Source: an uncultured Methanosarcinales archaeon (GTDB taxonomy: Archaea; Nanobdellota; Nanobdellia; Woesearchaeales; CAYSVS01). Taken from it: DNA of 64,000 bases. The stretch is taken from assembly GCA_964434475.1 (NCBI GenBank), contig CAYSVS010000002.1, positions 7,604-71,603 of the forward strand, in the 5' to 3' direction. Shown here piece by piece: positions 21,581 to 62,803 of the stretch; the first letter of the stretch is position 1; the number at the start of each line of letters is the position of its first letter. The translations under genes and the position numbers were made by a program. The notes below the pieces were generated by a model. That model saw nothing but the letters and a program-made list of their open reading frames with translations, did not search any database and had not been told where the DNA came from.

Positions 21581-21581
21581 A

Positions 21582-23542: not shown

Positions 23543-23543
23543 A

Positions 23544-41061: not shown

Positions 41062-41153
41062 ATTTAAGACCTCTTTTTTATAATATATAGTATCCACTAT
41101 TTATTAATCTTTTGATAATTTTAGAATGATAAACAAGTTTTTTGATAATTGCA

Positions 41154-47741: not shown

Positions 47742-50700
47742 ATGAAAAGCTGATGGAAGGACTGAGCATAATTGTTTTGCTAGTTGTCAGTTTAGTATTA
47801 GGATTAAGCGTCAATTATGAAGATAACATAACAGGATTCAGTATTGCAAACTTTGAAAACACATATATGGCGAATGATTCGATAAACATCAATACAGATT
47901 TTAAATTTAATTGCTTTGACATGAACAATACAAAGATATTGGTTGAATTCAACAACAATACAGAGATATACCATATTGAAGAGTTAGAGCACAGTGCAGT
48001 TTATGATAAAACATATGTATTGAACATAAAGGTTAAGTTGGATAATCCTGAACAGATAGGAGAGTATCTGCTAAAGATAAAAGCTACTAGCGACAATGAA
48101 ACGCACAATCTTGAAAAGAAGATACTCATAATGAATAAGACCAATCTTATAGAGATAGAAAAAGAAGCAAGCAATTCTACAGATATCGAAACTAATGAAA
48201 CAAATGTTGTAGAAATAAATGAAACAGAAAAGAAAACAGATATTGAAAATGTCATAAACGAAACACAAATATCAAATCAAACAGAAGCACATAATGATTT
48301 GGCAACAGATGATACAATGCATCAGGATAATAATGAAACAGGAAATATTACAATAAGGATTAACCAAAGCCAAACAAACACAGAAGGAAATGAGCATATG
48401 GATGATGCGTTTAATGAAACAAACATCACAAAGAATATTAAACAAACGCAAAAATATGAAACATTCACATTACAGAGCAAGGAAGGTAAAGACATAGGGG
48501 TTTTTGAGATAAGTGCAAAAGATTCGAAGTATAACTTAAAGATATATGAAGTCGCGAAAAATTCAACAATTCAAGCAGAAGCTACAATAAAGGGGATGAA
48601 AGACATACCTATAGTAAAGACGAAAATAGGCAGAATAAATGAAAAGCACATAAAAACAAAAGTGTTTGCTATAGAGCATATAAAGATACAGGAAGCTGAA
48701 ATAATTCTTCCTAAGACAGGATATGTAGATACAATCTATAGATGCAACAATTTTGATATCGATATCTTCGAATGTGAGGAGGAATGGCAAAAGACAAATA
48801 TAGAGTTCGAAGATCTTGAAAATAGAATAAAATTTACTGTTGATCATTTCAGCGCTTATGCTGGCGGAATAGGTTATGATTCAAGACTGTACATATACGA
48901 TGATACTGACTTTGAGATAAAACAGGTTGAAGAGAATATTTTGTTCTATGCCAACTATACCAACTCAAGTAACCAGACAATATTAGATTCTAATTGCACA
49001 ATAGAATTCAACATTACAGGCAACTGGGAAGGATTATCTAATATGCATTATAATGAGTCTTTGGAATTATGGTTTTTTAACAGAAGCTTTAACGCGTCAG
49101 GAGAAAATCAGTTCAATGTAAGCTGCACTTCCAGTTATGATAATTTAAGTGCGATAGATAGCATCACTATCTACAATGACCATTCAGGACCATATTGGAC
49201 AGAGAATAAGACAAACTTCGAAGGAGTTTCGACATATGAAAAAGATAAAGAGTATATGTTCAATGTTACGTGGAATGATGCAAATGATATAAATGAAGTA
49301 ATTATAGAACATGATTTCAACAGCAGCGTGCACAACTATTCTGTAAATAACATAGGAAATGAATACTATTACACATATACAGGATTAAAGACAGGAACAT
49401 ATAATTGGAAAGAGTATGCATATGACATATTAGGTAATCTTAACTCAACTGATGAATGGCAGTTTGAAATAGTAAAAGCCGAACCTGTGTTGAATTTAAC
49501 TTTGAACAGAATACAAGGAAATGTTTTGGTTAATGAAAATCAAAACTTAAACATTAATGCTTATTGTCAAGAGCCGCATAATGAATATGTGGAATTGTAT
49601 CTTAATGATAGTTTGATAAACAAAGGAACAGGAATATTAAGCAACACAACATCATTTGCAAACGCAGGATTGCATAATTCAACAATAAGGTATCTTGGCA
49701 ATGAAAATTATACTTCAGCAAATATAACATATAATATAAGTGTGAATTCTCAGCCATACATTGATCCGGCAGTACCTAATGTTTCAATATACAGAGATTA
49801 TGGAGATTATGAAATCAATCTTACACATTATGAAAATGATCTTGAAGATTCAGCAGAAAATCTCAGTTGGAGCATAGGGTACATAAACAACAGCTTATTA
49901 CAATACATATTTAATGAGGATGTATTGACGCTGACAACTGTTTCAGCAGCTCATGGAGTAGATAAGCTGGAATTAATATTGACAGACAGCAATGGATTAA
50001 ATGATACGCAGAATATAACTGTATTTATACCTTCAATAGAGCTGCATTCAGAGATAGGAGAATTGTTCATAATAGTTAATAATACGAATTCAACCAGTAT
50101 AATATTGAATGTTACTGATTATTATGCTGATGTTAATTTAACTGTAAACAACAGCAAATGCTCATTAGACAATTATAGTCTAGTAAATTTCATAGGAAAA
50201 AAAGACATAAACTTATCATGTAACTTCAACTACAGCCAAAACATAAGCGAGTATGTATTGATAGATACAAACAAAAGCAACAACCTGACAATAAAGATAA
50301 CTCCTGTTGAACCAAGGTTTAATCTTGAACAGATAAGCGGATACAATATAGTTTCAGGAGGAAGCTTTGATAATTCAATTATGTTGAATGTTTCCTATGT
50401 TTTTGCATTAGATGTAAACAATACAATAGATTGTCCAAATAATTGGGGATGTAATGTTAGTCCAGAGCATTATGCTAAACTAGAGATAGGAAATTATGGA
50501 ATCAATTATTCAATCATAGTGCCCGATGATGAATCTGCAGGAAATTATAGGATAAATTACAGCACATATGACCAATACGGAAGAAAAGAAGATAATTTAT
50601 TTTATGTCAATGTTTCGCAAACACCATTCATCTTTGTTGAAAAGAATAATTTAAGCGCTTATGTTGATATCTGCGAAGATATAGAATATAATATCTATTT

Positions 50701-53700
50701 TGAGAACAATGATCTTGTTAACCTAGACAACATAACAATAATAGATTATCTACCTAGTGATCTTGAGTTTAATTCGTGGAGTACGGAAAACAACAGAACT
50801 ATTGTCGATATGTACAATACAAACTCAAGGATAGTATGGAACAAGAGCAGCATGGAGATAGGAGAAAATATAAGCATAAGCTTGAACTTAACAGCCAACT
50901 GCAGTGCTTATGGTTATAATATCAACAAGGCAAACATAACATATTATTGGAATACTACATCAGGAGCAAGAAGGAATAAAACAACAGAAATCGAAGCACA
51001 CAGAGTTTATGTCAATAAACCAAAGATTGAGCTAGAGATTGTTCCAGATCAAACATTGAAAAATCTCAATCAAACAATAACATGGACATTGAGAATAAGA
51101 AACACAGGAAATGCAACAGCTTACAACATAAACATAAGCTATCTTACAGAGCAAGGTTTTGAATATATAAGTTTCTCGGATATGAGCAACATAAGCAACA
51201 GTAAACCAGGATATGGAGTTGACAATAATCATTCTATACTGTGGATTGCAAACATAACTAAAGGAGATGAATGGACAGCAGAAGTATATGCAAATCCTAA
51301 GTACTGCGATGAAAATTTATTGGATTCTAACTTAAGCGTAAAAGATATCTGCGGATGTGATGAGTTTGATAAACATCTTGAAAGCAATATTAGTTTAAGA
51401 AAAATAATAATTAACAAGACAACAAAGAAAACCGAGTTAGGAATTGGTGAACTTAACACATACACAATCGAAGCACTGGTTTGCGGCGAATATAAAAATT
51501 TGACAATAACAGATAGTTTTCCCAATCTTTTGAATTTTACTAAGAATGATAGTTATGTTGATGATAATGATATAAACATAACAACAATAAAAACAGACAG
51601 AAACTTCAGATGGACACTAAAAAATCACACAGGAAACATGAAGAGCCTTGAAAAATATGTTCACATTAGACTAAACATAAGCCAATACCCTAATAATCTA
51701 TCAAATGACAATGACGAGATAACCAACAATGCAACACTATTGTACTACAATTCTTCAGAGGATGAATCTGATAAATTCTATGAAACAGGAACAAGCGCAG
51801 GAGAAACAAGCATAAGCCAATCTACTATTACAGTATATGAGCCAGATGTACAAATAAGTGTTGAGACTTTGAAAGATACATGGAACATAAGCGATGAACT
51901 GCATGTGAATATTACATTAGTAAATATAGGAAACAATGATGCTTATAATCTGACTATCAACAGCTCGTATGTTGATGGTTTGGAACTGATAAATTCGAGC
52001 TATGAGATGGATTATAATGATACGGAGTTGTTTAGTTGGAAGATAGGCAAACTTGAACAAGCGCAGCAGTTCAGCATAATAGTGAATTATCTAGTCAATG
52101 AAACTTACAAAGATGCAAGAAGAGTGTTAGCTGATGATTATTTAGGAATAGATGCAGATATTGAATACTACAGTTATTACCTCGATAATGAACATAATGC
52201 TGTTCCAAGAGAATATTATGATCAAGACAATAAGCAGATAAAAATAGACAGAGCATATCTTAATTTTGATACTGACAAAATAGTTGCAGCGATAGGAGAA
52301 AAGATAACATATGACATAACAGCAGACTTCAGCAAAGTATATGCTAATGATGCACATATAATAAATAAGATTCCTTTTGGAACAGAATTTATCAGATATA
52401 CTAACTCAAGCTATATGGATCTGACTGTTGATATGAACAGATTGATATTCAATCTTACTAACATTACGGAAAGGAAAAAGATAAATCTAAGCATAGAAGT
52501 TTATGTTAATTCTTCTGCATACGACGGACAAAACTTGATAAATTATGTTAACTTAACATATCAAAACAGCACAGATGATGAGTTTGTCATTCAACATAGT
52601 TCTACTGTAACAGTAAGAGAACCATTCATAGACATAATAAAAGAATTGATGAGCAGCCAAGAAATAAAGATAGGAGATGTTGTTGAATACAATATTACAA
52701 TAATCAATAATGGACTATATGATGGATATAATGTTACTATGCAAGAGAACATATCTGACGGACTGATACTTAATTCATCTTCTCCTGCTTATGATTCTAA
52801 AAACGGAAACATATTAGTATGGCATTACAGCAAATTCCAAAAACAGACAACCAAGAACATATTGCTTAATCTTACAGTCAACAGGACATACAAAAGTGGC
52901 GAGTATGTTAGTGCAAATGATGTTTTCAATAATCATGTTGATATAAATTATTATGGCTTCAATTCAACAATAGCAGAAGAGTATAATGCAACAGTAAATG
53001 CGTATTATAATGAAACATATTCTGATAACAAGGTAGAACTGATAAAACCTCGAATATATGTATTTAGAGACAAGACAAACGCAACAATAGGAGAAAATGT
53101 CAGCTATAATATAGTATTGAATTTCACAGAAACAGCAGGCAATTATGTTGAGCTTAATAACACGCTTGATCAAGGGTTTGTGCTGATAAATGCAACGAAT
53201 AATCCTAGCTATAACGGAAGAAATCTGCTGTGGAGTTTTGGCAATATATCCTTACAAAGAATAGAGATAAACTACTCAGTATATATCAATGATACTTCTA
53301 TAAACGAAAAAGGAAGGAATGTTGAACAAAAGTTTGACTTGAAATATGAAAGCCATAATCTTACTAAACATTATCTAAACAATAAAACATACATTGAGAT
53401 AAAAGAGCCTAATGTTACAATATTTAAACAGCTTATGAGCGATCCTAATTCAGGGATAGGAGAAGTTATAGAATACAATATAACCATAGTCAATCGAGGA
53501 AATTCGGATGCGTTCAATGTTACAATAAAAGATAGGATTCCTAATGGAACATATTACAATACATCTAATCCTGGCTTTGTTAAGGAAGAAAATAAATATC
53601 TGCTTTGGAACTATTCAAGACTAGATGCAGGAGATTATAGGACAATCTTATTGAATTTCACTATAAACAACAGCTATGATGACAGAAGCATTGTCAATTC

Positions 53701-56700
53701 AGGAGACATATTCGGCAACAGCGTAAATATGACATACTATAGCTACAATTATACTCTTGCAAATCCTTACAAAGGAAAAACAAGAAAGTATTACATAGGA
53801 ACCAACAGCGATGCTTTTGTCATAATATCGCCTGAATTCGGAAAAATTACTTCGCCATTGAAGACTATTGCAGGAATAGGAGAGAATATCAACTATGTCA
53901 TAAATGTAAATTATACTGCAGGTGCTAACAATGTTACAGTCAATGACCTATTGCCCGATAATATTGTTCTTGTAAATTATAGCTTTGAAGATAATGCGAC
54001 AACAGATAACAAAACAATACAATGGAACTTTGGAAGAGTTGGAGAGATAAGGCAGGATAATATCAACATAAGAACTTATGTGAATGATTCTAGCTCAGTA
54101 TATGATGGAATAGAGATAGAAAAGAATTATGCTAACCTTACATATATAGGAGAAAACAATACAGTGTACAATCTTTCGTCTTTAAGCAATACAGTTACAG
54201 TGAGAGAACCTAATGTAAACTTGAGCATAGTGTTGATAGGAAACAAGCATCTGAAAATAAAGGATAATGTTGAGTATAAAATATCAATAGAGAATATAGG
54301 GAACTATGCTGCATATAATGTTACTTTACATGACAAGATTCCAGACGGATTATTTTACAATAGTTCAAACATAGGATATAAGGCATTTGAAGATAATATA
54401 TTAGAGTACAATTATCCAAAAATATCTGCAGGAACAGTTAAAAATATTTTGCTGAACTTAACCATAAATGGAACATATGCAGACGGAAATTTAGTGAGTT
54501 CAAACGACAGCATATATGACTCTATCAATACAACATACTATAGCTTTAACCAGACAAAAGCAAAAGAATACGGAGGCATAGTGAGAGAATATTTTAACTC
54601 AAGCTATTCTGAAAACATAAGCTTGATTGCACCTACAATAGAGAAATATGTTAATTCAAGTTTTGGTTATGAAGGAGATATTATCAAATATGTCATAGAA
54701 GTTAACGCAAGCAATGGGTTAAGAAATTTTACTGTTGAAGATAATCTGCCAGAAGGTTTGACTTATGTAAATGATACCAGGCACATTTATTCTAGTTTGG
54801 ATGGAAACAATATAACATGGGAATTTGGAGATGTTCCTAATCAGTTTACATATATCAACATCACTGTAAACATAAGCTCAAGTCCAGATCAAGGAGATGG
54901 AGTATATATAGACAATAATACTGCAACGATATATTACATGAACTCTAACAAGAAAGTATTCAGTCTAAATTCAACAAGCAGCAGGACAGAGATGAATGTG
55001 CCTCCTGAACAGATCAATCTGACATCTCCAGTAGATGAGCATAATACAACTAATAGACAGCCAAGCTTTGACTGGGGTGATTCAAATGATTTAGACATAG
55101 TAGATTCAATAAAGTACTATCTTGAAATATCAAATTCAAGCTGTTTTGAATATTTGTATGCTGATCAGAATACGACACTATCAGAATATACATTGACAGG
55201 AGTGCAGAGTTTAAGTGATGGACAATATTATTGGAGAGTCAAGATATGCGATGATTCTTTAAAGCTAAACAACTGCAGTTATTCTTATGAAAACTTCACA
55301 TTTAGAGTTGATAATGGAGCTCCTGAAATAACAATACATGAGCCTGATGAAGATGAAGTTGTAGCTTGGTTAGTTTACTTTATAGCTAACGCCACAGATA
55401 ATCTGACACATACAGATAAAGTATGGTACACAATAAGCAACAATACATTGATGCAGCAAGGTTTCCTAAACATGTCAAACAGTTGGGAAGCAGTATGGAA
55501 TACTGCAAATATTGTAAGTAATTCAACTGACATAAACCATTTCAATTTTACAGTTTATGCTAATGACACATTGGACAATACAGCAAATAAGACAATTGCA
55601 TTTGTTGTTGATAACAGAAACCCAGGATTACAAATAATATCTCCAGATAAGACCTACCATAATGCAAATATTGGTTTGGATATAAGGCTGAGCAATGAAC
55701 ATCTTAACAAAAGCTGGTTTGAGATAAATTATAGCAGCAGAGCATTGCTGATTTCAAATAATACAGAGATAGGGAAACCTAGGTTCAATTGGACACAACA
55801 AATAGATCTTAGCATAGAGGATAATTACACATTAACTGTTTATGCAGAGGATGAAGTAGGGAATAACATAACTAAGCAAACATGGTTTGTGTATGATACA
55901 AGTGCACCAAACCATCAATTATTTAGAAGTCCTATTCCTGCCTATACTACAGATAATATAACATTATCTGTAATAGTCAATGACAATTATAATATTGATA
56001 CTGTTTACATAACACATAATGCATCTGGAACATATGAAAATCATAGTGTGCAGATCAGCGGAAACAATTATTCAAGAATAATATACCATAATGAAACAAG
56101 CAACCAAGAAAACATAGGATGGTATACTTGGATAAACGACAGCGCCAAGAATGTTAACATATCAAGCATCGAGGCTATAAAAATAGAGAACAGAGTACCT
56201 GTATTCAGTCCTTTGTTAAGCAATAAGATAGCGCAGGAGGATCAAGAGTTTAGATACAATATAAATGCAACAGATTATGATTATGAAGACAGCATAAACT
56301 ATACGACCAATGCAACAGAGTTTATGATAAATAAAAATACAGGATTAATTAATTGGACTCCGACAAATGAGGATGTGGGAGTATTGGTCGTCAATGTTAC
56401 AATATGCGATAATAGCACTGCAGCTGCATATTGTAATTCAAGTGTGTTTAACATTACTGTGAATAATACCAACGATGCGCCTTATGCAGTAAGTTTGGGA
56501 CTGCCTGAAAACAATTCAATTACAAATGATCCTAATCCTTATTTCAACTGGAGCGTTGCAAATGACGTTGATGCAGGAGATAGTTTAACCTATTATTTGA
56601 TTTTAGACAATAACAGTGATTTTAGTTCTGTTGAGTTGATACAAAACACAACAAATAATTTGTATGGATTGACAAATTCACAGAACCTATCAAACGATCA

Positions 56701-59700
56701 ATGGTATTGGCGTGTAAGAACTTGTGACGACAGCTATTCTACGAATAATTGCACATATTCTGCAGAAAACTTTACTTTTACAATAGATGAAAGTACAAGC
56801 ATAGTTACACTGACTGAGCCCATAGATGGCCATAATGCCACCAAAAATAATATGACATTTATCTGCAATGTTACAGATAATTATGGACTAAAGAACATAA
56901 CTTTATTTGCAAATATCACTGGATGGAACAAGTTTGGATCAACTAATATATCTGGTAAGAAAAATTCTTCTGTATTTGTTGTTACAAACATATCAGATGG
57001 ATCATATGTATGGAACTGCCTTGCTTATGATATGGCGGGCAACTATAATTGGGCGCTGAGCAACAATACATTTAGGATAGATACTAATGCGCCTAATATA
57101 ACATACTATTATCCTTCAAATGGCGCAAGTTTAGGATATACAACAACAAAAGTTGAAGCAGAGATAAGGACTGATGAATTGTCTGTATGCTGGTATAATT
57201 TTACAAATAAAAGTTTTGTATATTCACAAGGAAATAATTTCAATGACAGCTATAGATACAATCACAGCCTAAATATTAGCATTAGCCAAGGACAAAGCTA
57301 CAGCATCTATTATCTATGCAATGATAGTTACGGCAACCTAAACAATGAGTCTTATGTGCATAGTTTCTCTGTACAGACGCAGCCAGATGATCCAAGCGGA
57401 GGAGGGGAAGAAGAACCGCCTGCTGAACCAGAATGCACAGCAAGCTGGGAGTGCACAGCTTGGAGTCCTGCAATATGTCCTCCAAGCGGAATACAGACAA
57501 GATCTTGTACATGTTCATGTCCAGGAGGAACTGGGTGTACAGGAGATTATAGTACATCAAGAACTTGCGTATACACGCCAACATGCGATGATGGAATAAA
57601 GAATCAGGATGAAACAGATGTAGATTGCGGAGGAAGCTGTCTGGGATGCAGCACAGGAAAGCAGTGCAGCCAGCAGACAGATTGTTTATCAGGGTTATGC
57701 GTAAGTAATGTATGCAGAGAAGTAGGATGCTTCAACAATATCAAAGATGGAGATGAAACAGATATAGATTGCGGTGGAAGCTGCAGTAAATGCGCGGTGA
57801 ATAAAGCATGTTCAAGCAAAAGCGACTGTTTGTCAAATTTATGTATCAATAATATATGTAAAAATCCTTCTTGCACAGACAGCTTAAAAAACCAGGATGA
57901 AACTGATATAGATTGTGGAGGAAATATTTGTTCAGGATGTGCAGTAGACAAGAACTGCAATGCTAATTCAGACTGCCAAAGCAATTATTGCATAGGAGGA
58001 AAATGCAAGATAGCTTCGTGTTCAGATGGTTTGATGAATCAGGATGAGACAGATGTAGACTGCGGAGGAAGCATATGCGGAAAGTGCAGCATAGGCAAAG
58101 AATGCCTGATAGATCCTGATTGTATCAATAACAACTGCGTTTTAGGACAATGTGTTGAAGTAAGCTGTGATGATGGAATACAAAATGGAGATGAAACAGA
58201 TGTAGATTGCGGAGGAGTATGTGGAAAGTGCAGAATAGGAAGTAGCTGTGCTTTGGATAGCGATTGCGAGAATAATAATTGCTTATCAAACGTATGTGCT
58301 GCAGAGAATTGCGATGACAATATAAAGAACGGAGATGAAACAGATGTAGATTGCGGAGGAAGCTGTCCTAGATGCGATACAGGAAAATCTTGTTCTGTTA
58401 ATTCTGATTGCTCCAGCAACAGCTGCATAGACAACATATGCGGAGCTCCAAACTGTGAAGATAATTCCAAGAATCAGGATGAGACAGATGTAGACTGTGG
58501 AGGAAGCTGCTATGCTTGCGAGGATGGCAAGCAATGTTCTGTAAATTCAGATTGTGCTAGCTTGTTCTGTAAAGAAAATGTTTGCAGACAAGCTTCATGC
58601 ACAGACACTATAATTAACCAGGACGAAACAGATGTAGATTGCGGAGGACCTTGTCAAGGTTGTACTGCAGGAAAGAATTGTATGGTTGATAGCGACTGTA
58701 TAAGCAAATATTGCGTCGCAGGAATGTGCGAAACAGCAAGCTGCACTGACGGTGTGCTCAACGGAGATGAAGAAGGCATAGACTGCGGAGGAAGCTGTCC
58801 AGCGTGTGCTAGCTGTGATGATGGGATCAAGAACGGAGATGAAAAAGGAATAGATTGCGGAGGAAGCTGCCCAGCGTGCTTCTTGGAATGTAGCGATGGA
58901 ACACAGGCAGGAAAATGCTCTGTTGAAAAGCCAAAATATTGTACATTGGATGAGGCTTTGGTGTTTGATTGCGAAAATTGCGGATGTCCTAATACAGGAG
59001 ATGTTTGTCAAGCTGATGGAAAATGCAGAGGAATAGGTAGCTGTTCAGACAGAATACAGAACCAAGGCGAAACAGGAGTGGATTGCGGCGGACCTTGTAA
59101 AGCGTGTGAAGCTACTTGTTTTGATGGATTAAAAAATCAAGGCGAAACAGGAGTAGATTGCGGAGGACCTTGCGAACCTTGCGCTAAAGAGCCTTTGCTT
59201 GAAAAACCAGGGCAATTTGAATTTGATGAAATACAAAGCTATGAATTTATGTTATATGAAAATGATATGCAAGAGTTTGAGATAGACAATATTAAACATA
59301 CAGTGCATGTATCAAAAGTTTATCTGGATAGTGCTGATCTAATAATAAGTTCTGACCCTATAAAGGTTAATGTTAAACTTGGAAAAGAAAGTTATGTAGA
59401 TATTGACGGAGATAATATTTATGATATTAGATTATTAATAAAAGATATAGCAGACAAAGGAATAAGCCTAAAGATAACTGTGCTTGAAGAAAGGATAACT
59501 GCTGCACAAAGAATAAGGCAGTTGTTGGGTCTTGAGGAGAGAGAAAGTTCCATTATACCTCAGGACATAAACATAGATAATATGCCTTGTCTCAAGGATC
59601 CTAAATCCAGCCAAAACAAGATTTCTGTTTTTGGTTCTGATTTTAAGTTTGATACACCTATAGGTTATGATGTCCTGATTGATGGTTTCAATATAATGTG

Positions 59701-62700
59701 CAATAATGGCGCAACAAATTTGACACTGACAATACCTAAGAATTACGCAGATATTTTCGCCTTGGATAAAAACGGAAATAGGATAAAATTGGCAAGCACT
59801 GGCTTGAAATGCGGAGAAGAGTTTGAGGAATTTGCAAAAGATGAAATGTTTGTAAGGGAGTATGAAGATTTTGAAGTTGCAGGAAATATTGATGAAAACA
59901 ATAAAAATATCAATCATGAATATTATGATTTTGAATTCATTACAGATGATAAATTTAAGGTTGTTTTGAAAAAACCAAAAGATCCAGTTTTAGAGCCTAA
60001 AAATAATCTTTTGAAGATAAGCGGAAAAGCCATTGCATTGCATATAGATAAAAAAATAGTATCTGGAAATCTAAAGATAGCCTTGCCTTTGGTAAAAGAT
60101 GAAAAGATAGAAGAAGGAAGCTATAATGTTTATGTTATGGTTCCTGGTCAGCAATGGAAGTTGTTGGAAAGTGATGAATATGAAAAGATAATAAGTTCTA
60201 GATTAAATAACCTTAGCAGTTACATAAACAGAAATAATGAGATTGTTTTGGCTGTAATAGGTAAGATATGCGCTAACTGTAAGTACAGCACACTAAAAAA
60301 AGCGTATGATCCTGGCAATACAAGAGATGCATTGCTGATGATACATGGATTAGGAAGCTCGCCAAAAACATTTGAGAATGTGCTTAAGGATATAAGGATG
60401 ACTAACCAGCCATGGCAGGCTTGGACTTACGGATATCCTACAGAAAAGAGCGTTAGTAAAAATGCGATTGAGCTTGCACACCATCTTGAAGCAAATGCAG
60501 ATGAATTTGATTATATGTATATTGCAGCGCACAGCATGGGCGGACTAGTAGTAAGAGAAGCGTTGTATTATAGCTATCTTGTAAATAAGGAAAAACCAGG
60601 AACATTCAAGTATTTGGATAAGATCAAGAAAGTAATACTTATTAGTGTTCCGAATAAAGGGAGCCCTGGCGCAGAGTTCTTATTAGGATTATCTCAATAC
60701 CTGACAAACGACAAATCAGACACAGCAATAGTGAATCTGGATAGCAAAGGCGTGCAAGATCTTATCAATGGTACAGAGACACCTATGGTGTCTGGAATAA
60801 AGTATTATGTTATTGCTGGAACAAAAAGCTATGAATTCGGAAAAAGCATATTAAGGGTTGAGTTGTTTGAACAAAACGTAACAAACGACGGACTTGTTTC
60901 TGTAGATAGTGCACAAAAAGTAGGGGGGGCTGTACTTGATGATGAGTGTGAAAACTATTGGGAAATATATGAGACACATACAGAAATATTAGATAATCCT
61001 ATATCACGAAGATTAGTAGAAAAGATAGTAGCTGAAGAGATAGCTAAAGGAATAAAAAACACTGCAATATTAGGAAATATAGTCTATTATGATCTGCCTA
61101 TCAAATGCGGAGAGGATTATGTTGTTCTTGGCAAGAAAGTTAATCCAAATAAACAGTATGATCCAACAGGATGCTTATGCGGAAATGGATACTGCGGCGA
61201 AGGAGAGGATAAAGAGAATTGCGCAATAGACTGCGATACTTTATTGAATAAAGAGAATATATGTAAAAGTTCGCCATTTGCAATATTATTGCTTATTGTT
61301 GTTATGCTGATAATAGGAGCCCCTTATGTTTATGAAAAATATATCAGACGCTTGAGATTTGCAACAGTTTTGAAAAACAGGATGGTATGCTGCTTTGTGT
61401 GGACAGCATATATTATTGCTGCTGTCAATCTTATGCTGTTCTTGTATTATAAGCAGTTTTGTATCAGCTATTATAGTGTGGGGCTGGGTAAGAATATGCT
61501 AATAGCTTTAGGCATGTTGATTGTTGTATTGTTAATATATGATTGGTTCATATATAAGTTTAGGAAAGAAGAGAAGAAGCTTGAGAAAGAGTTCAAGTTT
61601 ATGAGTAATATTGCAAGATTGTTTAGACTCCATGTTAAGTTGATGTTATGGATAGTTTGGATATTGATAGTTATAGGTTATGCTGCAGGAATGATGGTTG
61701 TGTTTAACATCAGTGAAGAGTTATTTGCAAATCTGTTGTTCAATGTTATATTGGTGATATTGACGTTTGTAGCTGTAAATACCTTGAACTTCTTTGTTTA
61801 CGAAGAAAGGAAGATAGTTACAGGATTGGAGAAGAAAGAGAAAGAGATAGAGAAATTGGAAAGATTTGAAGAAAAAGAGATCAAGAAAGAGAAGAAGAAG
61901 ATATGGGAATTGGAGTTTAAGGAATTGTTTAAGTCCAAAAAAGAAGTCAAGAGATTGAAATCTTTAGAAAAAGCAAGGAAAGCCAGGTTTAAAAAACTGA
62001 AGAAAAAAGAAAGGAGAGAGAAGATAAGAATATTCAAGATAAGGGTTAGGAAGGTCAAGGACAGGCTTTTGCATAAATTAGGTTTAAAATATACTATAAA
62101 GGAAAAGGAAAGGCTGTTTAAGAAAGAAAGATTAAAGAATTTAGAAAAAGCTAGAAGGGTTAAGAAAAGGAAAGCGAAAATAAAAAATATGAACAAATAC
62201 CTCAACAAACTAAAAAACAAGATTAAAAGGTATTTCAAGAAAGAATTGAAAGAGGTTAATGAAGATTACAAAGAATGGTATGAAAAAGAACTGCGTAAAA
62301 TTGAAAGAGAGAAAATCAGAAGGATGGTAAGAGCAAAGAAATGGTATAAATTCTTAAGAAAGATTGGATTGTACCATACCAAAAAAGATAAGCAGATGTT
62401 GTTAGATAAGAAGAGATTGAAAAGTTTAGAAAAAGCAAGAAGAGTTAAGAAATTTAATTCTATAATTAAAAAATTGCATAAAAGAAAGCTAAAACCTCTA
62501 GAGAAAGCAAGAAAAGCCAGGAAGAGGAAAGCAGAGCTTAATAGGATTAAAAGAAAAATCAATAAGTTGAAACAAAAAATAATCAAAAGTTTTGGAAAAA
62601 TAAAGATAAAGCCAAGCTGGAAAACAAAAGAAAGGCTGGCTAAATTAGGATTATACAGCAAAAGAAAGATTATTGAACATAATGAAAGAGTGGAAAGAGC

Positions 62701-62803
62701 AAAGATTGTGAAACTCATGAAGAAAGATAAGAAAAAAAGGAAAAGAGAAGCTGATAAAGAATATGATGATCTAAAGTATGGAGAGCAGACAGATTGGGAG
62801 TAA
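47738..62803 (+). CDS. giant (5,021 aa) multidomain cell-surface protein with embedded lipase-like hydrolase domain and C-terminal 5-TM anchor
   Basis: A single uninterrupted 15,066-nt ORF. An N-terminal hydrophobic signal or anchor (LSIIVLLVVSLVLGLSV) is followed by an Asn-rich region dense in N-x-S/T sequons. Next come DUF11-like β-sandwich repeats, FN3-like and cadherin-like domains, 8 full and about 5 half Cys-rich repeats, an α/β-hydrolase domain (IHGLGSS, AHSMGG), five C-terminal TM helices and a K/R-rich repeat tail. Confidence 0.85.
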   Translation: MNEKLMEGLSIIVLLVVSLVLGLSVNYEDNITGFSIANFENTYMANDSININTDFKFNCFDMNNTKILVEFNNNTEIYHIEELEHSAVYDKTYVLNIKVKLDNPEQIGEYLLKIKATSDNETHNLEKKILIMNKTNLIEIEKEASNSTDIETNETNVVEINETEKKTDIENVINETQISNQTEAHNDLATDDTMHQDNNETGNITIRINQSQTNTEGNEHMDDAFNETNITKNIKQTQKYETFTLQSKEGKDIGVFEISAKDSKYNLKIYEVAKNSTIQAEATIKGMKDIPIVKTKIGRINEKHIKTKVFAIEHIKIQEAEIILPKTGYVDTIYRCNNFDIDIFECEEEWQKTNIEFEDLENRIKFTVDHFSAYAGGIGYDSRLYIYDDTDFEIKQVEENILFYANYTNSSNQTILDSNCTIEFNITGNWEGLSNMHYNESLELWFFNRSFNASGENQFNVSCTSSYDNLSAIDSITIYNDHSGPYWTENKTNFEGVSTYEKDKEYMFNVTWNDANDINEVIIEHDFNSSVHNYSVNNIGNEYYYTYTGLKTGTYNWKEYAYDILGNLNSTDEWQFEIVKAEPVLNLTLNRIQGNVLVNENQNLNINAYCQEPHNEYVELYLNDSLINKGTGILSNTTSFANAGLHNSTIRYLGNENYTSANITYNISVNSQPYIDPAVPNVSIYRDYGDYEINLTHYENDLEDSAENLSWSIGYINNSLLQYIFNEDVLTLTTVSAAHGVDKLELILTDSNGLNDTQNITVFIPSIELHSEIGELFIIVNNTNSTSIILNVTDYYADVNLTVNNSKCSLDNYSLVNFIGKKDINLSCNFNYSQNISEYVLIDTNKSNNLTIKITPVEPRFNLEQISGYNIVSGGSFDNSIMLNVSYVFALDVNNTIDCPNNWGCNVSPEHYAKLEIGNYGINYSIIVPDDESAGNYRINYSTYDQYGRKEDNLFYVNVSQTPFIFVEKNNLSAYVDICEDIEYNIYFENNDLVNLDNITIIDYLPSDLEFNSWSTENNRTIVDMYNTNSRIVWNKSSMEIGENISISLNLTANCSAYGYNINKANITYYWNTTSGARRNKTTEIEAHRVYVNKPKIELEIVPDQTLKNLNQTITWTLRIRNTGNATAYNINISYLTEQGFEYISFSDMSNISNSKPGYGVDNNHSILWIANITKGDEWTAEVYANPKYCDENLLDSNLSVKDICGCDEFDKHLESNISLRKIIINKTTKKTELGIGELNTYTIEALVCGEYKNLTITDSFPNLLNFTKNDSYVDDNDINITTIKTDRNFRWTLKNHTGNMKSLEKYVHIRLNISQYPNNLSNDNDEITNNATLLYYNSSEDESDKFYETGTSAGETSISQSTITVYEPDVQISVETLKDTWNISDELHVNITLVNIGNNDAYNLTINSSYVDGLELINSSYEMDYNDTELFSWKIGKLEQAQQFSIIVNYLVNETYKDARRVLADDYLGIDADIEYYSYYLDNEHNAVPREYYDQDNKQIKIDRAYLNFDTDKIVAAIGEKITYDITADFSKVYANDAHIINKIPFGTEFIRYTNSSYMDLTVDMNRLIFNLTNITERKKINLSIEVYVNSSAYDGQNLINYVNLTYQNSTDDEFVIQHSSTVTVREPFIDIIKELMSSQEIKIGDVVEYNITIINNGLYDGYNVTMQENISDGLILNSSSPAYDSKNGNILVWHYSKFQKQTTKNILLNLTVNRTYKSGEYVSANDVFNNHVDINYYGFNSTIAEEYNATVNAYYNETYSDNKVELIKPRIYVFRDKTNATIGENVSYNIVLNFTETAGNYVELNNTLDQGFVLINATNNPSYNGRNLLWSFGNISLQRIEINYSVYINDTSINEKGRNVEQKFDLKYESHNLTKHYLNNKTYIEIKEPNVTIFKQLMSDPNSGIGEVIEYNITIVNRGNSDAFNVTIKDRIPNGTYYNTSNPGFVKEENKYLLWNYSRLDAGDYRTILLNFTINNSYDDRSIVNSGDIFGNSVNMTYYSYNYTLANPYKGKTRKYYIGTNSDAFVIISPEFGKITSPLKTIAGIGENINYVINVNYTAGANNVTVNDLLPDNIVLVNYSFEDNATTDNKTIQWNFGRVGEIRQDNINIRTYVNDSSSVYDGIEIEKNYANLTYIGENNTVYNLSSLSNTVTVREPNVNLSIVLIGNKHLKIKDNVEYKISIENIGNYAAYNVTLHDKIPDGLFYNSSNIGYKAFEDNILEYNYPKISAGTVKNILLNLTINGTYADGNLVSSNDSIYDSINTTYYSFNQTKAKEYGGIVREYFNSSYSENISLIAPTIEKYVNSSFGYEGDIIKYVIEVNASNGLRNFTVEDNLPEGLTYVNDTRHIYSSLDGNNITWEFGDVPNQFTYINITVNISSSPDQGDGVYIDNNTATIYYMNSNKKVFSLNSTSSRTEMNVPPEQINLTSPVDEHNTTNRQPSFDWGDSNDLDIVDSIKYYLEISNSSCFEYLYADQNTTLSEYTLTGVQSLSDGQYYWRVKICDDSLKLNNCSYSYENFTFRVDNGAPEITIHEPDEDEVVAWLVYFIANATDNLTHTDKVWYTISNNTLMQQGFLNMSNSWEAVWNTANIVSNSTDINHFNFTVYANDTLDNTANKTIAFVVDNRNPGLQIISPDKTYHNANIGLDIRLSNEHLNKSWFEINYSSRALLISNNTEIGKPRFNWTQQIDLSIEDNYTLTVYAEDEVGNNITKQTWFVYDTSAPNHQLFRSPIPAYTTDNITLSVIVNDNYNIDTVYITHNASGTYENHSVQISGNNYSRIIYHNETSNQENIGWYTWINDSAKNVNISSIEAIKIENRVPVFSPLLSNKIAQEDQEFRYNINATDYDYEDSINYTTNATEFMINKNTGLINWTPTNEDVGVLVVNVTICDNSTAAAYCNSSVFNITVNNTNDAPYAVSLGLPENNSITNDPNPYFNWSVANDVDAGDSLTYYLILDNNSDFSSVELIQNTTNNLYGLTNSQNLSNDQWYWRVRTCDDSYSTNNCTYSAENFTFTIDESTSIVTLTEPIDGHNATKNNMTFICNVTDNYGLKNITLFANITGWNKFGSTNISGKKNSSVFVVTNISDGSYVWNCLAYDMAGNYNWALSNNTFRIDTNAPNITYYYPSNGASLGYTTTKVEAEIRTDELSVCWYNFTNKSFVYSQGNNFNDSYRYNHSLNISISQGQSYSIYYLCNDSYGNLNNESYVHSFSVQTQPDDPSGGGEEEPPAEPECTASWECTAWSPAICPPSGIQTRSCTCSCPGGTGCTGDYSTSRTCVYTPTCDDGIKNQDETDVDCGGSCLGCSTGKQCSQQTDCLSGLCVSNVCREVGCFNNIKDGDETDIDCGGSCSKCAVNKACSSKSDCLSNLCINNICKNPSCTDSLKNQDETDIDCGGNICSGCAVDKNCNANSDCQSNYCIGGKCKIASCSDGLMNQDETDVDCGGSICGKCSIGKECLIDPDCINNNCVLGQCVEVSCDDGIQNGDETDVDCGGVCGKCRIGSSCALDSDCENNNCLSNVCAAENCDDNIKNGDETDVDCGGSCPRCDTGKSCSVNSDCSSNSCIDNICGAPNCEDNSKNQDETDVDCGGSCYACEDGKQCSVNSDCASLFCKENVCRQASCTDTIINQDETDVDCGGPCQGCTAGKNCMVDSDCISKYCVAGMCETASCTDGVLNGDEEGIDCGGSCPACASCDDGIKNGDEKGIDCGGSCPACFLECSDGTQAGKCSVEKPKYCTLDEALVFDCENCGCPNTGDVCQADGKCRGIGSCSDRIQNQGETGVDCGGPCKACEATCFDGLKNQGETGVDCGGPCEPCAKEPLLEKPGQFEFDEIQSYEFMLYENDMQEFEIDNIKHTVHVSKVYLDSADLIISSDPIKVNVKLGKESYVDIDGDNIYDIRLLIKDIADKGISLKITVLEERITAAQRIRQLLGLEERESSIIPQDINIDNMPCLKDPKSSQNKISVFGSDFKFDTPIGYDVLIDGFNIMCNNGATNLTLTIPKNYADIFALDKNGNRIKLASTGLKCGEEFEEFAKDEMFVREYEDFEVAGNIDENNKNINHEYYDFEFITDDKFKVVLKKPKDPVLEPKNNLLKISGKAIALHIDKKIVSGNLKIALPLVKDEKIEEGSYNVYVMVPGQQWKLLESDEYEKIISSRLNNLSSYINRNNEIVLAVIGKICANCKYSTLKKAYDPGNTRDALLMIHGLGSSPKTFENVLKDIRMTNQPWQAWTYGYPTEKSVSKNAIELAHHLEANADEFDYMYIAAHSMGGLVVREALYYSYLVNKEKPGTFKYLDKIKKVILISVPNKGSPGAEFLLGLSQYLTNDKSDTAIVNLDSKGVQDLINGTETPMVSGIKYYVIAGTKSYEFGKSILRVELFEQNVTNDGLVSVDSAQKVGGAVLDDECENYWEIYETHTEILDNPISRRLVEKIVAEEIAKGIKNTAILGNIVYYDLPIKCGEDYVVLGKKVNPNKQYDPTGCLCGNGYCGEGEDKENCAIDCDTLLNKENICKSSPFAILLLIVVMLIIGAPYVYEKYIRRLRFATVLKNRMVCCFVWTAYIIAAVNLMLFLYYKQFCISYYSVGLGKNMLIALGMLIVVLLIYDWFIYKFRKEEKKLEKEFKFMSNIARLFRLHVKLMLWIVWILIVIGYAAGMMVVFNISEELFANLLFNVILVILTFVAVNTLNFFVYEERKIVTGLEKKEKEIEKLERFEEKEIKKEKKKIWELEFKELFKSKKEVKRLKSLEKARKARFKKLKKKERREKIRIFKIRVRKVKDRLLHKLGLKYTIKEKERLFKKERLKNLEKARRVKKRKAKIKNMNKYLNKLKNKIKRYFKKELKEVNEDYKEWYEKELRKIEREKIRRMVRAKKWYKFLRKIGLYHTKKDKQMLLDKKRLKSLEKARRVKKFNSIIKKLHKRKLKPLEKARKARKRKAELNRIKRKINKLKQKIIKSFGKIKIKPSWKTKERLAKLGLYSKRKIIEHNERVERAKIVKLMKKDKKKRKREADKEYDDLKYGEQTDWE
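57580..59200 (+). repeat. in-frame tandem array of ~48-aa (144-nt) cysteine-rich repeats within the giant gene
   Basis: The repeat consensus is C-x-D-x-I/L-K-N-G/Q-D-E-T-D-V/I-D-C-G-G-S-C-x-x-C-x-x-G-K-x-C-x-x-x-S-D-C-x-S-N-x-C-x-x-x-x-C, with 8 Cys per full unit. There are eight full units and about five 24-aa half units. The periodicity is visible at the DNA level. Confidence 0.85.
60300..61000 (+). other. lipase-class α/β-hydrolase domain inside the giant protein (aa ~4190-4420)
   Basis: It has an oxyanion-hole HG box (LLMIHGLGSS) and a nucleophile elbow AHSMGG (GxSxG). A downstream candidate catalytic Asp (TNDGLVSVDS) and His (YETHTEIL) follow. The order and spacing resemble Bacillus LipA-type (Lipase_2/PGAP1-like) enzymes. 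Confidence 0.75.
61250..62803 (+). other. C-terminal 5-TM membrane anchor and cytoplasmic K/R/E-rich repeat tail of the giant protein
   Basis: Five hydrophobic helices are present: FAILLLIVVMLIIGAPYVY, MVCCFVWTAYIIAAVNLMLFLYY, MLIALGMLIVVLLIYDWFIY, LMLWIVWILIVIGYAAGMMVVF and LLFNVILVILTFVAVNTLNFFVY. A roughly 330-aa tail follows, with reiterated KLGL-Y…RLK-S/N-LEKARRVKK units. Confidence 0.7.

Follow-up and report, generated by a model that had tools for sequence, protein, structure and literature searches.

Introduction

DPANN archaea spend their lives attached to other cells, a contact for which their giant surface proteins are the prime candidates. Almost nothing is known about the role of such proteins inside the symbiont. 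The question is raised here by the end of one giant gene in the window (i.e., the whole stretch of 64,000 nt analysed): region 61250-62803, which corresponds to the final 518 codons plus the stop of ORF 47738-62803 (+), codes for several membrane helices followed by a long, lysine-rich tail. Is this tail filler, or is it a domain that works on the inner side of the membrane and, in the latter case, what might it bind?

Anatomy of the giant protein

The following elements precede the membrane helices:

47738..62803, + strand: giant ORF of 5,021 aa (N-terminal signal/anchor, adhesin-like ectodomain, esterase module, Cys knot, five transmembrane (TM) helices, basic tail)
47750..47806, + strand: N-terminal hydrophobic segment (aa 5-23; Kyte-Doolittle peak 2.55), a signal peptide or signal anchor
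60332..60673, + strand: alpha/beta-hydrolase (esterase/lipase-like) core (aa 4199-4312), with a weak Pfam match to DUF7379/DUF676
61172..61234, + strand: Cys knot CLCGNGYCGEGEDKENCAIDC (aa 4479-4499), the last extracellular element, with invariant Cys columns throughout the family

The ectodomain shows Pfam matches to DUF11 (nine times), He_PIG, an Ig-like domain of the Big_3 type and DUF7379/DUF676. It contains 136 Cys residues, has a net charge of -299 and carries 225 N-x-S/T sequons versus 82 +/- 8 expected. The nucleophile motif of the esterase module, AHSMGG, is located at aa ~4264 (the family form is (A/G)HS(M/L)GG). The protein is a surface adhesin/esterase very rich in N-glycosylation motifs, from a low-GC archaeon of the DPANN group (Woesearchaeota/Nanoarchaeia type).

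The esterase module has 16 protein homologues (33-45% identity over ~500 aa, E-values down to 1e-115). The window protein shares the two hallmarks of this family: (i) a hydrolase module homologous over ~500 aa; and (ii) a knot of the form CxCGNGxCGxGE...CxxDC that leads directly into a TM helix. Family members are annotated, at most, as esterase/lipase family proteins (Pfam DUF676/DUF7379/PGAP1-like). Most of them have ~800-3,000 aa and one TM helix, while the window protein has 5,021 aa and five.

Membrane module and topology

A Kyte-Doolittle scan (19-aa window, threshold 1.6) detects one N-terminal hydrophobic segment in the giant protein, none for ~4,490 residues and then exactly five, which span nt 61277-61777 with peak scores of 2.1-2.6:

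61277..61333, + strand: TM1, out to in (aa 4514-4532), the counterpart of the single TM helix of most family members
61385..61441, + strand: TM2, in to out (aa 4550-4568), part of a 3-TM core common to the related loci L002-L004, L006 and L007
61496..61552, + strand: TM3, out to in (aa 4587-4605), belonging to the same core
61646..61702, + strand: TM4, in to out (aa 4637-4655), in the window protein only; its relatives have no comparably hydrophobic segment
61721..61777, + strand: TM5, out to in (aa 4662-4680), in the window protein only

A preliminary description of this DNA had proposed a five-helix membrane module followed by a tail of ~330 aa rich in K, R and E, and this anatomy is confirmed: five TM helices and a tail of 333 aa were found. 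It had also assigned the tail to the cytoplasm by the positive-inside rule, an orientation with which several features agree: (i) the number of helices after the external bulk is odd; (ii) the loops, in the predicted order in, out, in and out, carry 6, 2, 10 and 0 K/R residues; (iii) the only sequon of the module falls in a predicted outside loop; and (iv) the tail has no sequons, no Cys and a net charge of +87. The tail is placed in the cytoplasm because loop charges, sequons and Cys counts agree.

Only three of the five helices are conserved in the clade of proteins that share this tail (see below), all of whose members show hydropathy peaks at +30-36, +63-72 and +95-109 after the knot. TM5 aligns with weakly hydrophobic helices of the relatives, and the AF2 model runs it on into the cytoplasm as one helix. 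An origin of the five-helix module by duplication of a TM hairpin (similarity among TM1, TM3 and TM5; DNA family D3) is not claimed: short pieces gave z 2-4 and the A versus B comparison z 1.2.

Repeat structure of the tail

The tail is composed of the following elements:

61802..62800, + strand: cytoplasmic tail (aa 4689-5021; 333 aa; K+R 41%, net +87), predicted to be all-helical
61833..61899, + strand: juxtamembrane E/K-balanced stretch, the sole microsatellite-like DNA in the tail (6- and 12-nt units)
61949..61993, + strand: basic patch KRLKSLEKARKARFK, LEKAR copy 1, of the 'LEKARKAR' type (DNA family D2)
62060..62344, + strand: repeat unit 1 (aa 4775-4869), compared with unit 2 by Smith-Waterman alignment; DNA repeat D1, spacing 285 nt
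62069..62095, + strand: corner motif 1, LHKLGLKYT (aa 4778-4786), at an AF2 helix break
62126..62170, + strand: basic patch ERLKNLEKARRVKKR, LEKAR copy 2, 22 residues past corner 1, with an ungapped match to KRLAALARARAVRRD of L006
62345..62626, + strand: repeat unit 2 (aa 4870-4963)
62354..62380, + strand: corner motif 2, LRKIGLYHT (aa 4873-4881), at an AF2 helix break
62411..62455, + strand: basic patch KRLKSLEKARRVKKF, LEKAR copy 3
62483..62527, + strand: basic patch RKLKPLEKARKARKR, LEKAR copy 4, of the 'LEKARKAR' type
62627..62800, + strand: degenerate repeat unit 3 (aa 4964-5021), motif only, with the acidic C-terminal end EADKEYDDLKYGEQTDWE
62636..62662, + strand: corner motif 3, LAKLGLYSK (aa 4967-4975), at an AF2 helix break

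In terms of composition, K accounts for 29.7% of the tail, R for 11.4%, E for 12.3%, D+E for 15% and hydrophobic residues for about a quarter. LEKAR occurs four times (aa 4743, 4802, 4897 and 4921), against ~0.005 occurrences per 333 aa expected from the tail's own composition, and K[LI]GL[KY] three times (aa 4780, 4875 and 4969); outside the tail, both are absent from the six frames of the window. The Smith-Waterman score of unit 1 against unit 2 is 131, versus 63 +/- 8 in composition-preserving shuffles (z 8.2, 0/500). The duplication can also be seen in the DNA, as two 107-nt copies that lie 285 nt apart and are 71% identical, together with a further family of four 34-nt copies; no tandem DNA repeat was found in the tail outside 61833-61899. 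Unit 3, whose whole-unit alignment is non-significant, and LEKAR copy 1 are recognised by motif alone. The window protein contains two full patches of the form RLxxLx(K/R)ARxV(K/R)(K/R), and its corners are spaced 95 and 94 aa apart. Hence, with regard to the three or more repeats of roughly 40 aa previously reported for this tail, the quoted strings are all present and the duplication is real, but the period is ~95 aa.

Between the two core copies, synonymous sites are saturated (pS 0.71-0.91) and pN is 0.13-0.25; across the internal copies of RLKxLEKARRVKK, dN/dS is ~0.07. The tail is made of ~95-aa units and represents an all-helical repeat domain of ancient origin that has duplicated internally. 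Each unit consists of a long basic amphipathic helix whose start is a conserved helix-break corner (L-H-x-h-G-L-Y-K/R-T) with an S/T-x-x-E/D pattern behind it; a basic patch, R-L-x-x-L-x-K/R-A-R-x-V-K/R-K/R, comes ~22 residues after the corner.

The single-sequence AF2 model of the tail is all-helical (mean pLDDT 65.9; 70-85 in the helical blocks), with helix breaks that coincide exactly with the three corner motifs; its pTM of 0.22 is too low to define how the helices pack, which counts against the explanation preferred below. Gly and Pro add up to only 8 of the 333 residues, and the mean helical hydrophobic moment is 0.359 versus 0.262 +/- 0.024 in shuffles. The coiled coil that had been suggested from the helical periodicity was not upheld. 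According to a periodicity script of our own (used instead of COILS or Marcoil), a 3.5-residue periodicity is not significant in the tail (the highest z, 2-3, is reached at 3.4, 3.9 and 7.8; near 3.5 it is at most ~2.6), and the number of 28-residue windows with at least 6/8 hydrophobic a/d positions (43, versus 27 +/- 14 in shuffled sequences) is not above shuffles. A single alpha-helix of the ER/K type was rejected in view of the excess of K+R (41%) over D+E (15%) and the scarcity of i/i+4 opposite-charge pairs (31 versus 40.5 +/- 5 in shuffles).

Relatives of the tail

Direct searches with the TM module and tail were negative: (i) a word-index search gave no homologue; (ii) an exhaustive phmmer search of 1.84 billion representatives returned only the protein itself; (iii) motif profile A1 and PDB sequence searches gave no match; (iv) the C-terminal 872 aa found nothing among genome contigs and metagenome contigs; and (v) the C-terminal 541 aa (aa 4481-5021) matched no Pfam family at E<=0.1 and no NCBIfam family. 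No known nucleic-acid-binding domain was detected in the tail, which counts against the preferred explanation. Five metagenome-contig matches to a back-translated 87-nt corner-plus-patch pattern were discarded as chance matches in high-GC, non-homologous frames. The 90% cluster of the giant protein has one member, so there are no near-identical variants to compare, and a literature search on a described Woesearchaeal family or on lysine-rich archaeal cytoplasmic tails found nothing specific.

The failure of the tail searches is due, at least partly, to the HMMER null2 composition correction, which strips ~100 bits. When only the relatives are used to build a profile, the tail scores -45.0 bits with null2 (bias 101.1) and 56.1 bits without it; with null2 off, the giant ORF ranks first in the window (E 1.3e-8). 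The negative searches are, therefore, not proof of absence. More generally, 'no homologue' for a K/R-rich region may be a filter artefact, and a neighbouring conserved domain can recover the relatives. In this case, they were reached by tblastn via the adjacent esterase module, which led to 41 Woesearchaeota/Nanoarchaeia loci.

Three giant relatives (L004, L006 and L007) share the 3-TM core and a basic tail with two to three copies of LHxhGLY(K/R)T. In 275,000 ORF residues (46 loci plus the window), the strict form of the corner motif was found 10 times, always in the tails of these three proteins and the window protein, and mostly at a spacing of 94-110 aa; the motif was defined after inspection of the sequences, which counts against the preferred explanation. 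An ungapped match of 33 aa links LHKLGLKYTIKEKERLFKKERLKNLEKARRVKK with LHAIGLRKTKRDMTREIYQKRLAALARARAVRR of L006. Whole-tail Smith-Waterman alignments against shuffles gave z 4.1 for L007 and z 3.4 for L006 (0/300), with collinear motifs; L004 alone was non-significant (z 1.2), and a 'control' tail, that of L010, reached z 3.1. The four proteins group as one clade when the esterase module is analysed by neighbour joining. The corner motif is absent from the sister paralogues L002 and L003.

Locus GC for the four proteins of the clade is 0.336, 0.375, 0.53 and 0.576. As genomic GC rises, K is swapped for R and the positive charge is retained (net +40 to +80 in the relatives' tails). Between L004 and L006, 441 aa of tail align with one gap at a dN/dS of ~0.39, which makes the tail the fastest-evolving part of the protein (0.11-0.26 elsewhere; 0.11 in the esterase module). 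Within a single clade of giant proteins, the tail domain has passed down vertically under purifying selection. The reading of the tail as a functional module is thus supported: its motifs are conserved in L004, L006 and L007, and selection on them is purifying. Taken jointly, this account of anatomy, topology, homology and selection is very probably correct. One clade of giant DPANN surface proteins, then, has a conserved, selected cytoplasmic repeat domain that is invisible to routine HMMER-type annotation.

The tails of most other family members are of other types or only 6-25 aa long and, in consequence, the esterase-knot-TM module can do without this domain. The longest tails are all found in large members (at least 1,848 aa), some large members being short-tailed: L018, L032 and L036 are very large and have tails of just 22-25 aa. 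The tails of other types consist of RecX-like 'GW' units of 46 aa or 'YxxLxxxYxxL' units of ~64 aa; thus, in other members the cytoplasmic position is taken by arrays of three-helix modules of the RecX type, and the L039 tail, used as a positive control, matches Pfam RecX_HTH1 with E 1e-19. The window tail has no Pfam RecX_HTH1/2 hit, and hhalign gave a probability of 0.2% for A3 versus A5. A common ancestry of the RecX-like, YxxLxxxYxxL and LHxhGLY tail classes was rejected (hhalign probabilities 0.1-0.5%). Cytoplasmic repeat arrays of three or more kinds are interchanged within the family, which is often accompanied by a small helix-turn-helix (HTH) gene.

The adjacent HTH gene

In the window, this gene lies immediately upstream:

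47241..47741, + strand: double-HTH gene (166 aa) with two tandem sigma-70-region-4/LuxR-like HTH units

Its product matches Pfam Sigma70_r4_2 (E 6e-9) and HTH_23 and, like the tail, is strongly basic. The stop of the HTH gene overlaps the start of the giant gene (ATGA) and, hence, both genes are probably translationally coupled. Apart from the window, 10 of the 41 related loci have an HTH homologue on the same strand that adjoins or overlaps the family gene; it may lie upstream or downstream of it, and in most cases the two overlap by 4 nt. The pairing is seen with every tail class, short tails included, and so does not point to the polybasic tail in particular.

Possible roles of the tail

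A membrane-tethered polycationic tail would keep the C-terminus at the cytoplasmic face, display two to three corner motifs at fixed spacing and bind a polyanionic partner, for which nucleic acid or nucleoprotein would be the likeliest choice. The tail would thereby couple an external host-contact protein to the cell interior, and the double-HTH protein would be the obvious candidate for a functional partner. The preliminary description had suggested an intracellular docking platform, with binding of nucleic acid or cytoskeleton as options. That the tail is a docking or anchoring platform for a polyanion is a proposition for which we see an even chance; nucleic acid as that polyanion is put forward tentatively.

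The circumstantial points for a nucleic acid or nucleoprotein partner are the charge of the tail, the RecX-type arrays in the tails of other members and the HTH neighbour. Amphipathic basic helices near W, Y or F would suit an anionic membrane face equally well. The preferred explanation is further weakened by the faster evolution of the tail compared with the remaining protein, by the many family members with different or very short tails, by the sister paralogues L002 and L003, by the HTH linkage regardless of tail class and by the whole-tail alignment scores of L004 and L010.

The opposite view, that the tail is a non-functional, lineage-specific low-complexity expansion arising from the A-rich codons of a genome with 33% GC, was raised in advance for the event that orthologues lacked the tail. 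Most family members do indeed lack it, it evolves fastest, the TM module and tail have no database match, K-rich stretches are common among the other ORFs of the window and there is a small microsatellite-like stretch at 61833-61899. Against this, the negative searches are accounted for by the composition correction; the motif and unit architecture are kept at 53-58% GC, with R replacing K; the peptide is retained between internal copies whose synonymous sites are saturated; the L004 and L006 tails align with one gap in 441 aa; and no tandem DNA repeat extends beyond the stretch mentioned. Since one clade keeps the tail across 34-58% GC, it is not an artefact of A-rich codon bias. This view is largely refuted, and its chances are very slim: the tail is a selected, clade-specific domain and not codon-bias filler. 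A spacer or oligomerisation scaffold, in which a coiled coil or ER/K rod clusters the giant proteins or spaces something off the membrane, would fit the all-helical prediction with very few Gly/Pro, some short heptad-like stretches (MNKYLNKLKNKIKRYF, IKRKINKLKQKIIKSF) and the E/K balance of the initial ~45 tail residues. It is nonetheless improbable, given the lack of significant 3.5-residue periodicity, the scarce i/i+4 pairs and a net charge of +87, which strongly disfavours self-association unless a counter-polyanion is present.

An unlikely role would be that of an in-plane membrane keel, with basic amphipathic helices lying on the anionic inner leaflet and resisting, together with the five TM helices, the extraction of a 4,500-residue ectodomain put under load by cell-cell attachment. 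In the window protein, L007 and L004, the hydrophobic moment exceeds that of shuffled sequences (peaks of 0.7, e.g. NRIKRKINKLKQKIIKSF), an aromatic-plus-basic stretch lies ahead of each corner (AKKWYKFLRK, KPSWKTKERL; VWLRWMIRD in L004/L006), the window protein has gained two extra TM helices and the longest tails belong to large proteins. However, 333-616 aa far exceeds what membrane association needs, only about one-quarter of the tail is hydrophobic, L018, L032 and L036 are very large yet short-tailed, and, in the position of these amphipathic helices, other clades carry arrays of RecX-like domains. That the corner motifs are helix caps with a purely structural purpose, as a keel would imply, is likewise unlikely. 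It is also improbable that the tail transfers a signal by sequestering or regulating the co-translated HTH protein in an anti-sigma-like manner, so that host engagement alters transcription. The ATGA overlap of a Sigma70_r4_2-like gene with the start of the giant gene and the recurrence of this pairing in related loci speak for it, but the pairing tracks the esterase-knot-TM module and not the polybasic tail, no Pfam anti-sigma domain appears at E<=0.1, tail and HTH protein are both strongly basic, and the HTH protein may merely autoregulate the operon. In addition, archaeal RNA polymerase works without sigma factors.

Returning to the docking platform, its boldest version would make the giant protein and its HTH partner an 'outside-in' device, in which the tail holds DNA/RNA, the HTH regulator or both where the cells touch. 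We consider this rather improbable. If true, host attachment would connect directly with the nucleoid or gene expression of a DPANN symbiont, and the RecX-like, YxxLxxxYxxL and LHxhGLY(K/R)T arrays would be the alternative read-outs, on the cytoplasmic side, of a single system. In any case, the tail, its motif and the HTH partner provide testable handles on whether host contact and cell interior are coupled.

Comparison with known systems

A close parallel is found in the SPEARE-type giant surface proteins of Nanohaloarchaeota, e.g. SVXNc_0300 and BNXNv_0298 (PMC10266531). Both they and the window protein belong to DPANN archaea and have a Sec-type N-terminus, an enormous adhesin-like ectodomain with Ig-like repeats and a C-terminal TM region; in both, the bulk is outside and a module, which in SPEARE includes a helical/coiled-coil end, is inside (PMC10266531). 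But while the cytoplasmic part of SPEARE is a VirB4/TraG-like ATPase (PMC10266531), the C-terminal 541 aa of the window protein match no Pfam family, and hence no ATPase, at E<=0.1. The window protein also differs from SPEARE in its membrane-proximal esterase and Cys knot, its five TM helices and its polybasic tail of LHxhGLY(K/R)T repeats.

The C-terminal sorting signals LPXTG (Gram-positive) and PGF-CTERM (archaeal) resemble the window protein in that a C-terminal hydrophobic helix is followed by positive charge that stops translocation and leaves the C-terminus inside. They comprise one helix with 3-10 terminal basic residues, and sortase or archaeosortase cleaves them; the window protein instead has five helices and a 333-residue tail, with no LPXTG/PGF motif and no NCBIfam match. 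ECF sigma/anti-sigma pairs and ToxR-like regulators are comparable in the probable coupling of a small sigma-70-region-4-like HTH gene to the gene of a membrane protein whose large part is extracytoplasmic and which also has a cytoplasmic segment. Unlike the ECF pairs, the present one belongs to an archaeon and thus to an organism devoid of sigma factors, has no detected anti-sigma domain and shows a variable gene order and a linkage that is not tail-specific.

Polybasic binders of polyanions include (i) the C-terminal domain of histone H1; (ii) the basic regions of bZIP proteins; and (iii) the effector domain of MARCKS. By analogy, the tail may be likened to them in its very high K/R density, in the conservation of charge over residue identity and in its helical propensity. 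There is no sequence relationship with any of them and, unlike them, the tail is membrane-tethered, is much longer than the bZIP or MARCKS segments and is built of defined repeats whose corners conserve the non-basic residues L, H, G, L, Y and T.

The giant protein and its surroundings

The C-terminal tail of the giant protein in the window (aa 4689-5021, 333 residues) is a cytoplasmic, helical, polycationic repeat domain behind a 3(+2)-TM anchor. One clade of giant Woesearchaeal surface esterase/adhesins has conserved it, and it is under selection there. The following features of the window are relevant here:

47241-47741, + strand: HTH gene (166 aa) upstream of the giant gene, with two sigma-70-region-4/LuxR-like HTH units
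47738-62803, + strand: giant gene, a single ORF of 5,021 aa, of which 61250-62803 is the 3' end
57611-59251, + strand: twelve Cys-rich modules (aa 3292-~3838) with a '(D/E)xD(V/I)DCGG' core and, mostly, a 48-49-aa period
61277-61777, + strand: five strong TM segments by Kyte-Doolittle (aa 4514-4532, 4550-4568, 4587-4605, 4637-4655 and 4662-4680)
62858-64000, + strand: next gene, cut by the window end; product with a signal-like segment at the N-terminus

We infer that the source is a DPANN archaeon, since genes for an archaeal-type RFC small subunit, for a class Ib aminoacyl-tRNA synthetase and for PmbA/TldD proteases are among the neighbours, GC is ~33%, and all the homologues found are labelled Woesearchaeota, Nanoarchaeota or Nanoarchaeia.

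The ectodomain (47807-61276) comprises: (i) DUF11 repeats (x9), He_PIG and other Ig-like domains; (ii) the DxDCGG Cys-rich modules, which come after the Ig-like region and before the esterase module; and (iii) the esterase module itself, a membrane-proximal alpha/beta-hydrolase (DUF7379/DUF676-like) with the nucleophile AHSMGG, followed by a Cys knot that is conserved in the family. It contains 136 Cys, has a net charge of -299 and carries 225 N-x-S/T sequons versus 82 +/- 8 in shuffles, a ~2.7-fold enrichment which implies that it would be very densely N-glycosylated. Long minus-strand ORFs at 57.3-59.0 kb overlap the Cys-rich repeat region and are probably not genes. The next gene contains a 252-nt tandem repeat at 63446-63954 (2.0 copies, 94% identical). 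Its product has no Pfam match and is probably a further surface protein, in which part of the sequence was duplicated recently.

Membrane anchor and topology

In the Kyte-Doolittle scan, an N-terminal hydrophobic segment (aa 5-23) is followed by none for ~4,490 residues, up to the five TM segments. As the bulk of the protein is outside and the number of TM segments is odd, the tail is placed inside. The K/R content of the predicted loops (6 and 10 inside, 2 and 0 outside), the sole sequon of the TM module (NIS), which falls in a predicted outside loop, and the difference between the ectodomain (225 sequons, 136 Cys, net charge -299) and the tail, with zero sequons, zero Cys and a net charge of +87, all agree with the cytoplasmic location put forward in the preliminary description.

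Three TM helices stand at equivalent post-knot distances in the window protein and in five archaeal loci retrieved via the esterase module (L002, L003, L004, L006 and L007). A strongly hydrophobic counterpart of TM4 and TM5 is absent from these five loci and, in consequence, what had been described as a five-helix module is better read as a 3-TM core that is conserved and a hairpin specific to this lineage. With three helices or with five, the number is odd and the tail stays inside. TM1, TM3 and TM5 (61276-61312, 61501-61537 and 61723-61759; all out-to-in) have 62-70% DNA similarity at ~225-nt spacing, and (V/I)Y(E/K)xx(R/K) comes after each of them. There are hints, with weak statistical support (z 1-4), that the extra helices may stem from TM-hairpin duplication.

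Composition and repeats of the tail

The tail contains 29.7% K, 11.4% R and 12.3% E, versus 7.3% K+R and 14% D+E elsewhere in the protein. Stretches of 60 aa with 35-50% K+R also occur in several further ORFs of the window (~10000-25000 and 39745-41097); Lys-rich extensions are thus frequent in this genome, and composition by itself does not demonstrate function.

Every peptide string quoted in the preliminary description is present in the giant ORF, and the reiterated units it reported are real, but their period is ~95 aa, not ~40 aa. LEKAR occurs four times in the tail (~0.005 expected from the tail's own composition) and K(L/I)GL(K/Y) three times, and no further copy of either turns up in any of the window's six frames. 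The best pair of units (aa 4770-4864 vs 4865-4958) aligns with a Smith-Waterman score of 131 versus 63 +/- 8 in shuffles (z 8.2, 0/500). Only their motifs identify the third unit and the first copy of LEKAR. The DNA shows the repeats as a pair of 107-nt copies with 71% identity and a spacing of 285 nt and, over the LEKAR patches, as a 34-nt family in four copies; microsatellite-like DNA is confined to nt 61833-61899.

The tails of several family members (L007, L029, L020, L037 and P0013) close with a short acidic or heptad-like stretch, such as 'LNSELDNLDKRIEDLEK' and 'ELRDELDDLNKELDALRRKL'; the window protein ends (62747-62800) in 'EADKEYDDLKYGEQTDWE'. Seen by eye only, this ending may be a shared C-terminal element.

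Relatives sharing the tail

Neither the TM module nor the tail has a match among the Pfam and NCBIfam models. Queried together, the two returned nothing in a word-indexed search of 5.8 billion proteins and only the protein itself in an exhaustive phmmer search over 1.84 billion representatives; a database search with a motif profile of the tail found no relatives either. Relatives were therefore sought using the neighbouring esterase module as anchor. This query gave 16 proteins (33-45% identity), whose alignment led to 41 Woesearchaeota/Nanoarchaeia loci. Once the ORFs are read to the stop, the post-knot region of the family has one to several TM helices and a mostly basic cytoplasmic tail of 6 to >830 aa. 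The corner motif of the window protein, LHxhGLY(K/R)T, recurs in the tails at three loci, all of them giant ORFs with the 5' end cut by the locus or contig.

Corner motifs in the tails
Window protein: LHKLGLKYT, LRKIGLYHT, LAKLGLYSK
L004: LHAVGLRKS, LHALGLYRT
L006: LHAIGLRKT, LHEAGLYRT
L007: LHSLGLYKY, LHFLGLYKT, MHSLGLYKT

A strict corner pattern, defined post hoc with the sequences already seen, gives 10 matches in 275,000 residues (ORFs of at least 100 aa from the loci and the window), and all 10 fall within the four tails listed above, at a spacing of mostly 94-110 aa. A gapless match between LHKLGLKYTIKEKERLFKKERLKNLEKARRVKK of the window protein and LHAIGLRKTKRDMTREIYQKRLAALARARAVRR of L006 has 12 identities and 7 K/R, L/I or E/D exchanges over 33 positions. 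In whole-tail Smith-Waterman comparisons, L007 (z 4.1) and L006 (z 3.4) score above every composition-preserving shuffle, with collinear motifs; L004 alone is not significant (z 1.2), and of five control tails taken from the family, four give near-zero scores.

The earlier negative searches are at least partly due to the null2 composition correction: a profile from the relatives' units alone misses the window tail under HMMER defaults, where null2 subtracts ~101 bits, and with null2 off the giant ORF is the window's top match (E 1.3e-8), its best domains on units 1 and 2. Lys/Arg-rich domains of this kind are thus systematically missed by phmmer/hmmsearch annotation.

Neighbour joining on the esterase module groups the window protein with L004, L006, L007, L002 and L003 in one clade, from which the four proteins with motif-bearing tails branch off early (tree without support values). 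Two Woesearchaeota MAGs, JACQNA01 and DATDVW01, have two paralogous giant clade genes each (L002/L003 vs L004/L006), one with the LHxhGLY(K/R)T tail and the other with a different tail whose last element is a single GW-like unit ('...EIAAELLPLNWSRR...').

Selection on the tail

Between the two internal copies of the window tail, synonymous sites are saturated (pS 0.71-0.91) and pN is 0.13-0.25; the RLKxLEKARRVKK core has a dN/dS of ~0.07 (few sites). The orthologous tails of L004 and L006 align over 441 residues with one gap and a dN/dS of ~0.39. The corresponding values are lower for the esterase module (0.11), the N-terminal ectodomain (0.21) and the TM core (0.26), so that constraint within the protein is weakest in the tail. 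The four genomes with the tail span 33.6-57.6% GC, and R replaces K so that the positive charge is kept. The reading of the tail as low-complexity filler driven by A-rich codon bias, which had been named as a possible refutation, is rejected by this selection, by the K-to-R exchange across the GC span and by the limited extent of the microsatellite.

Other tail classes and the HTH neighbour

Three mutually exclusive repeat classes can be differentiated among the cytoplasmic tails of the family: (i) a 46-aa 'GW' unit ('L..KG.s..eI+..L.kKGW') matching Pfam RecX_HTH1 (E 1e-19 in L039, with ten copies), found in L039, L005, L014 and proteins P0002-P0006 and P0009; (ii) a ~64-aa 'YxxLxxxYxxL' unit ('YxxL(R/K)xxYxxL...G...LY'), with up to 16 copies (L010), found in L008, L010, L012, L017 and L042; and (iii) the LHxhGLY(K/R)T type. 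None of them occurs in any ectodomain of the family, and profile-profile comparison gives no evidence of kinship among them.

HTH homologues, with one or two HTH units and the signature string '...NRDDRTIWTxYxRAKKK', directly adjoin the family gene and share its strand at 10 of the 41 loci, independently of the tail type:

Upstream of the family gene: L013 355-888, L015 3378-3890, L020 980-1519, L031 2021-2536
Downstream of the family gene: L004 9058-9285, L006 9231-9470, L008 9132-9554, L012 10095-10514, L019 7471-8007, L040 8320-8769

In the window, the HTH stop overlaps the ATG of the giant gene by 4 nt; the same 4-nt overlap is found in L004, L006, L008, L012, L020 and L040.

Predicted structure

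The single-sequence AlphaFold2 model is all-helical (mean pLDDT 65.9, helical blocks 70-85, pTM 0.22): it has five TM helices, of which TM5 runs on into the cytoplasm, and long tail helices that break exactly at the three corner motifs. The corner motif resembles a helix C-cap (h-x-x-h-G-h) with an N-cap box (S/T-x-x-E/D) after it. The helical hydrophobic moment of the window tail is 0.359 versus 0.262 +/- 0.024 in shuffles, and similar in L007 and L004. The coiled coil suggested in the preliminary description is not supported, because heptad periodicity in the window tail is not significant and a/d occupancy is not above shuffles. Neither is an ER/K single-alpha-helix, because i/i+4 opposite-charge pairs are rarer than in shuffles.

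Possible role and known systems

The tail would serve as a platform tethered to the membrane, binding a polyanion and presenting the repeated corner motif. Nucleic acid or nucleoprotein is the favoured partner on indirect grounds: the charge is kept as K or R, the RecX-type modules of sister proteins occupy the same position as the tail, and the HTH neighbour is conserved. A serious alternative is an anionic membrane face. A RecX-type array as the identity of the window tail itself was tested and failed, as did a PGF-CTERM/LPXTG-type signal. The putative intracellular platform gains strength from the conservation of the tail.

Among described systems, the giant SPEARE-type proteins of Nanohaloarchaeota come closest; they consist of a signal peptide, an Ig-like ectodomain, a TM region, a cytosolic VirB4-like ATPase and a coiled-coil end (PMC10266531). 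The window protein has the same layout, but its cytoplasmic module is unlike the ATPase module of the SPEARE-type proteins and has not been previously described. The window protein is rated as belonging with the giant DPANN surface proteins that have a cytoplasmic module.
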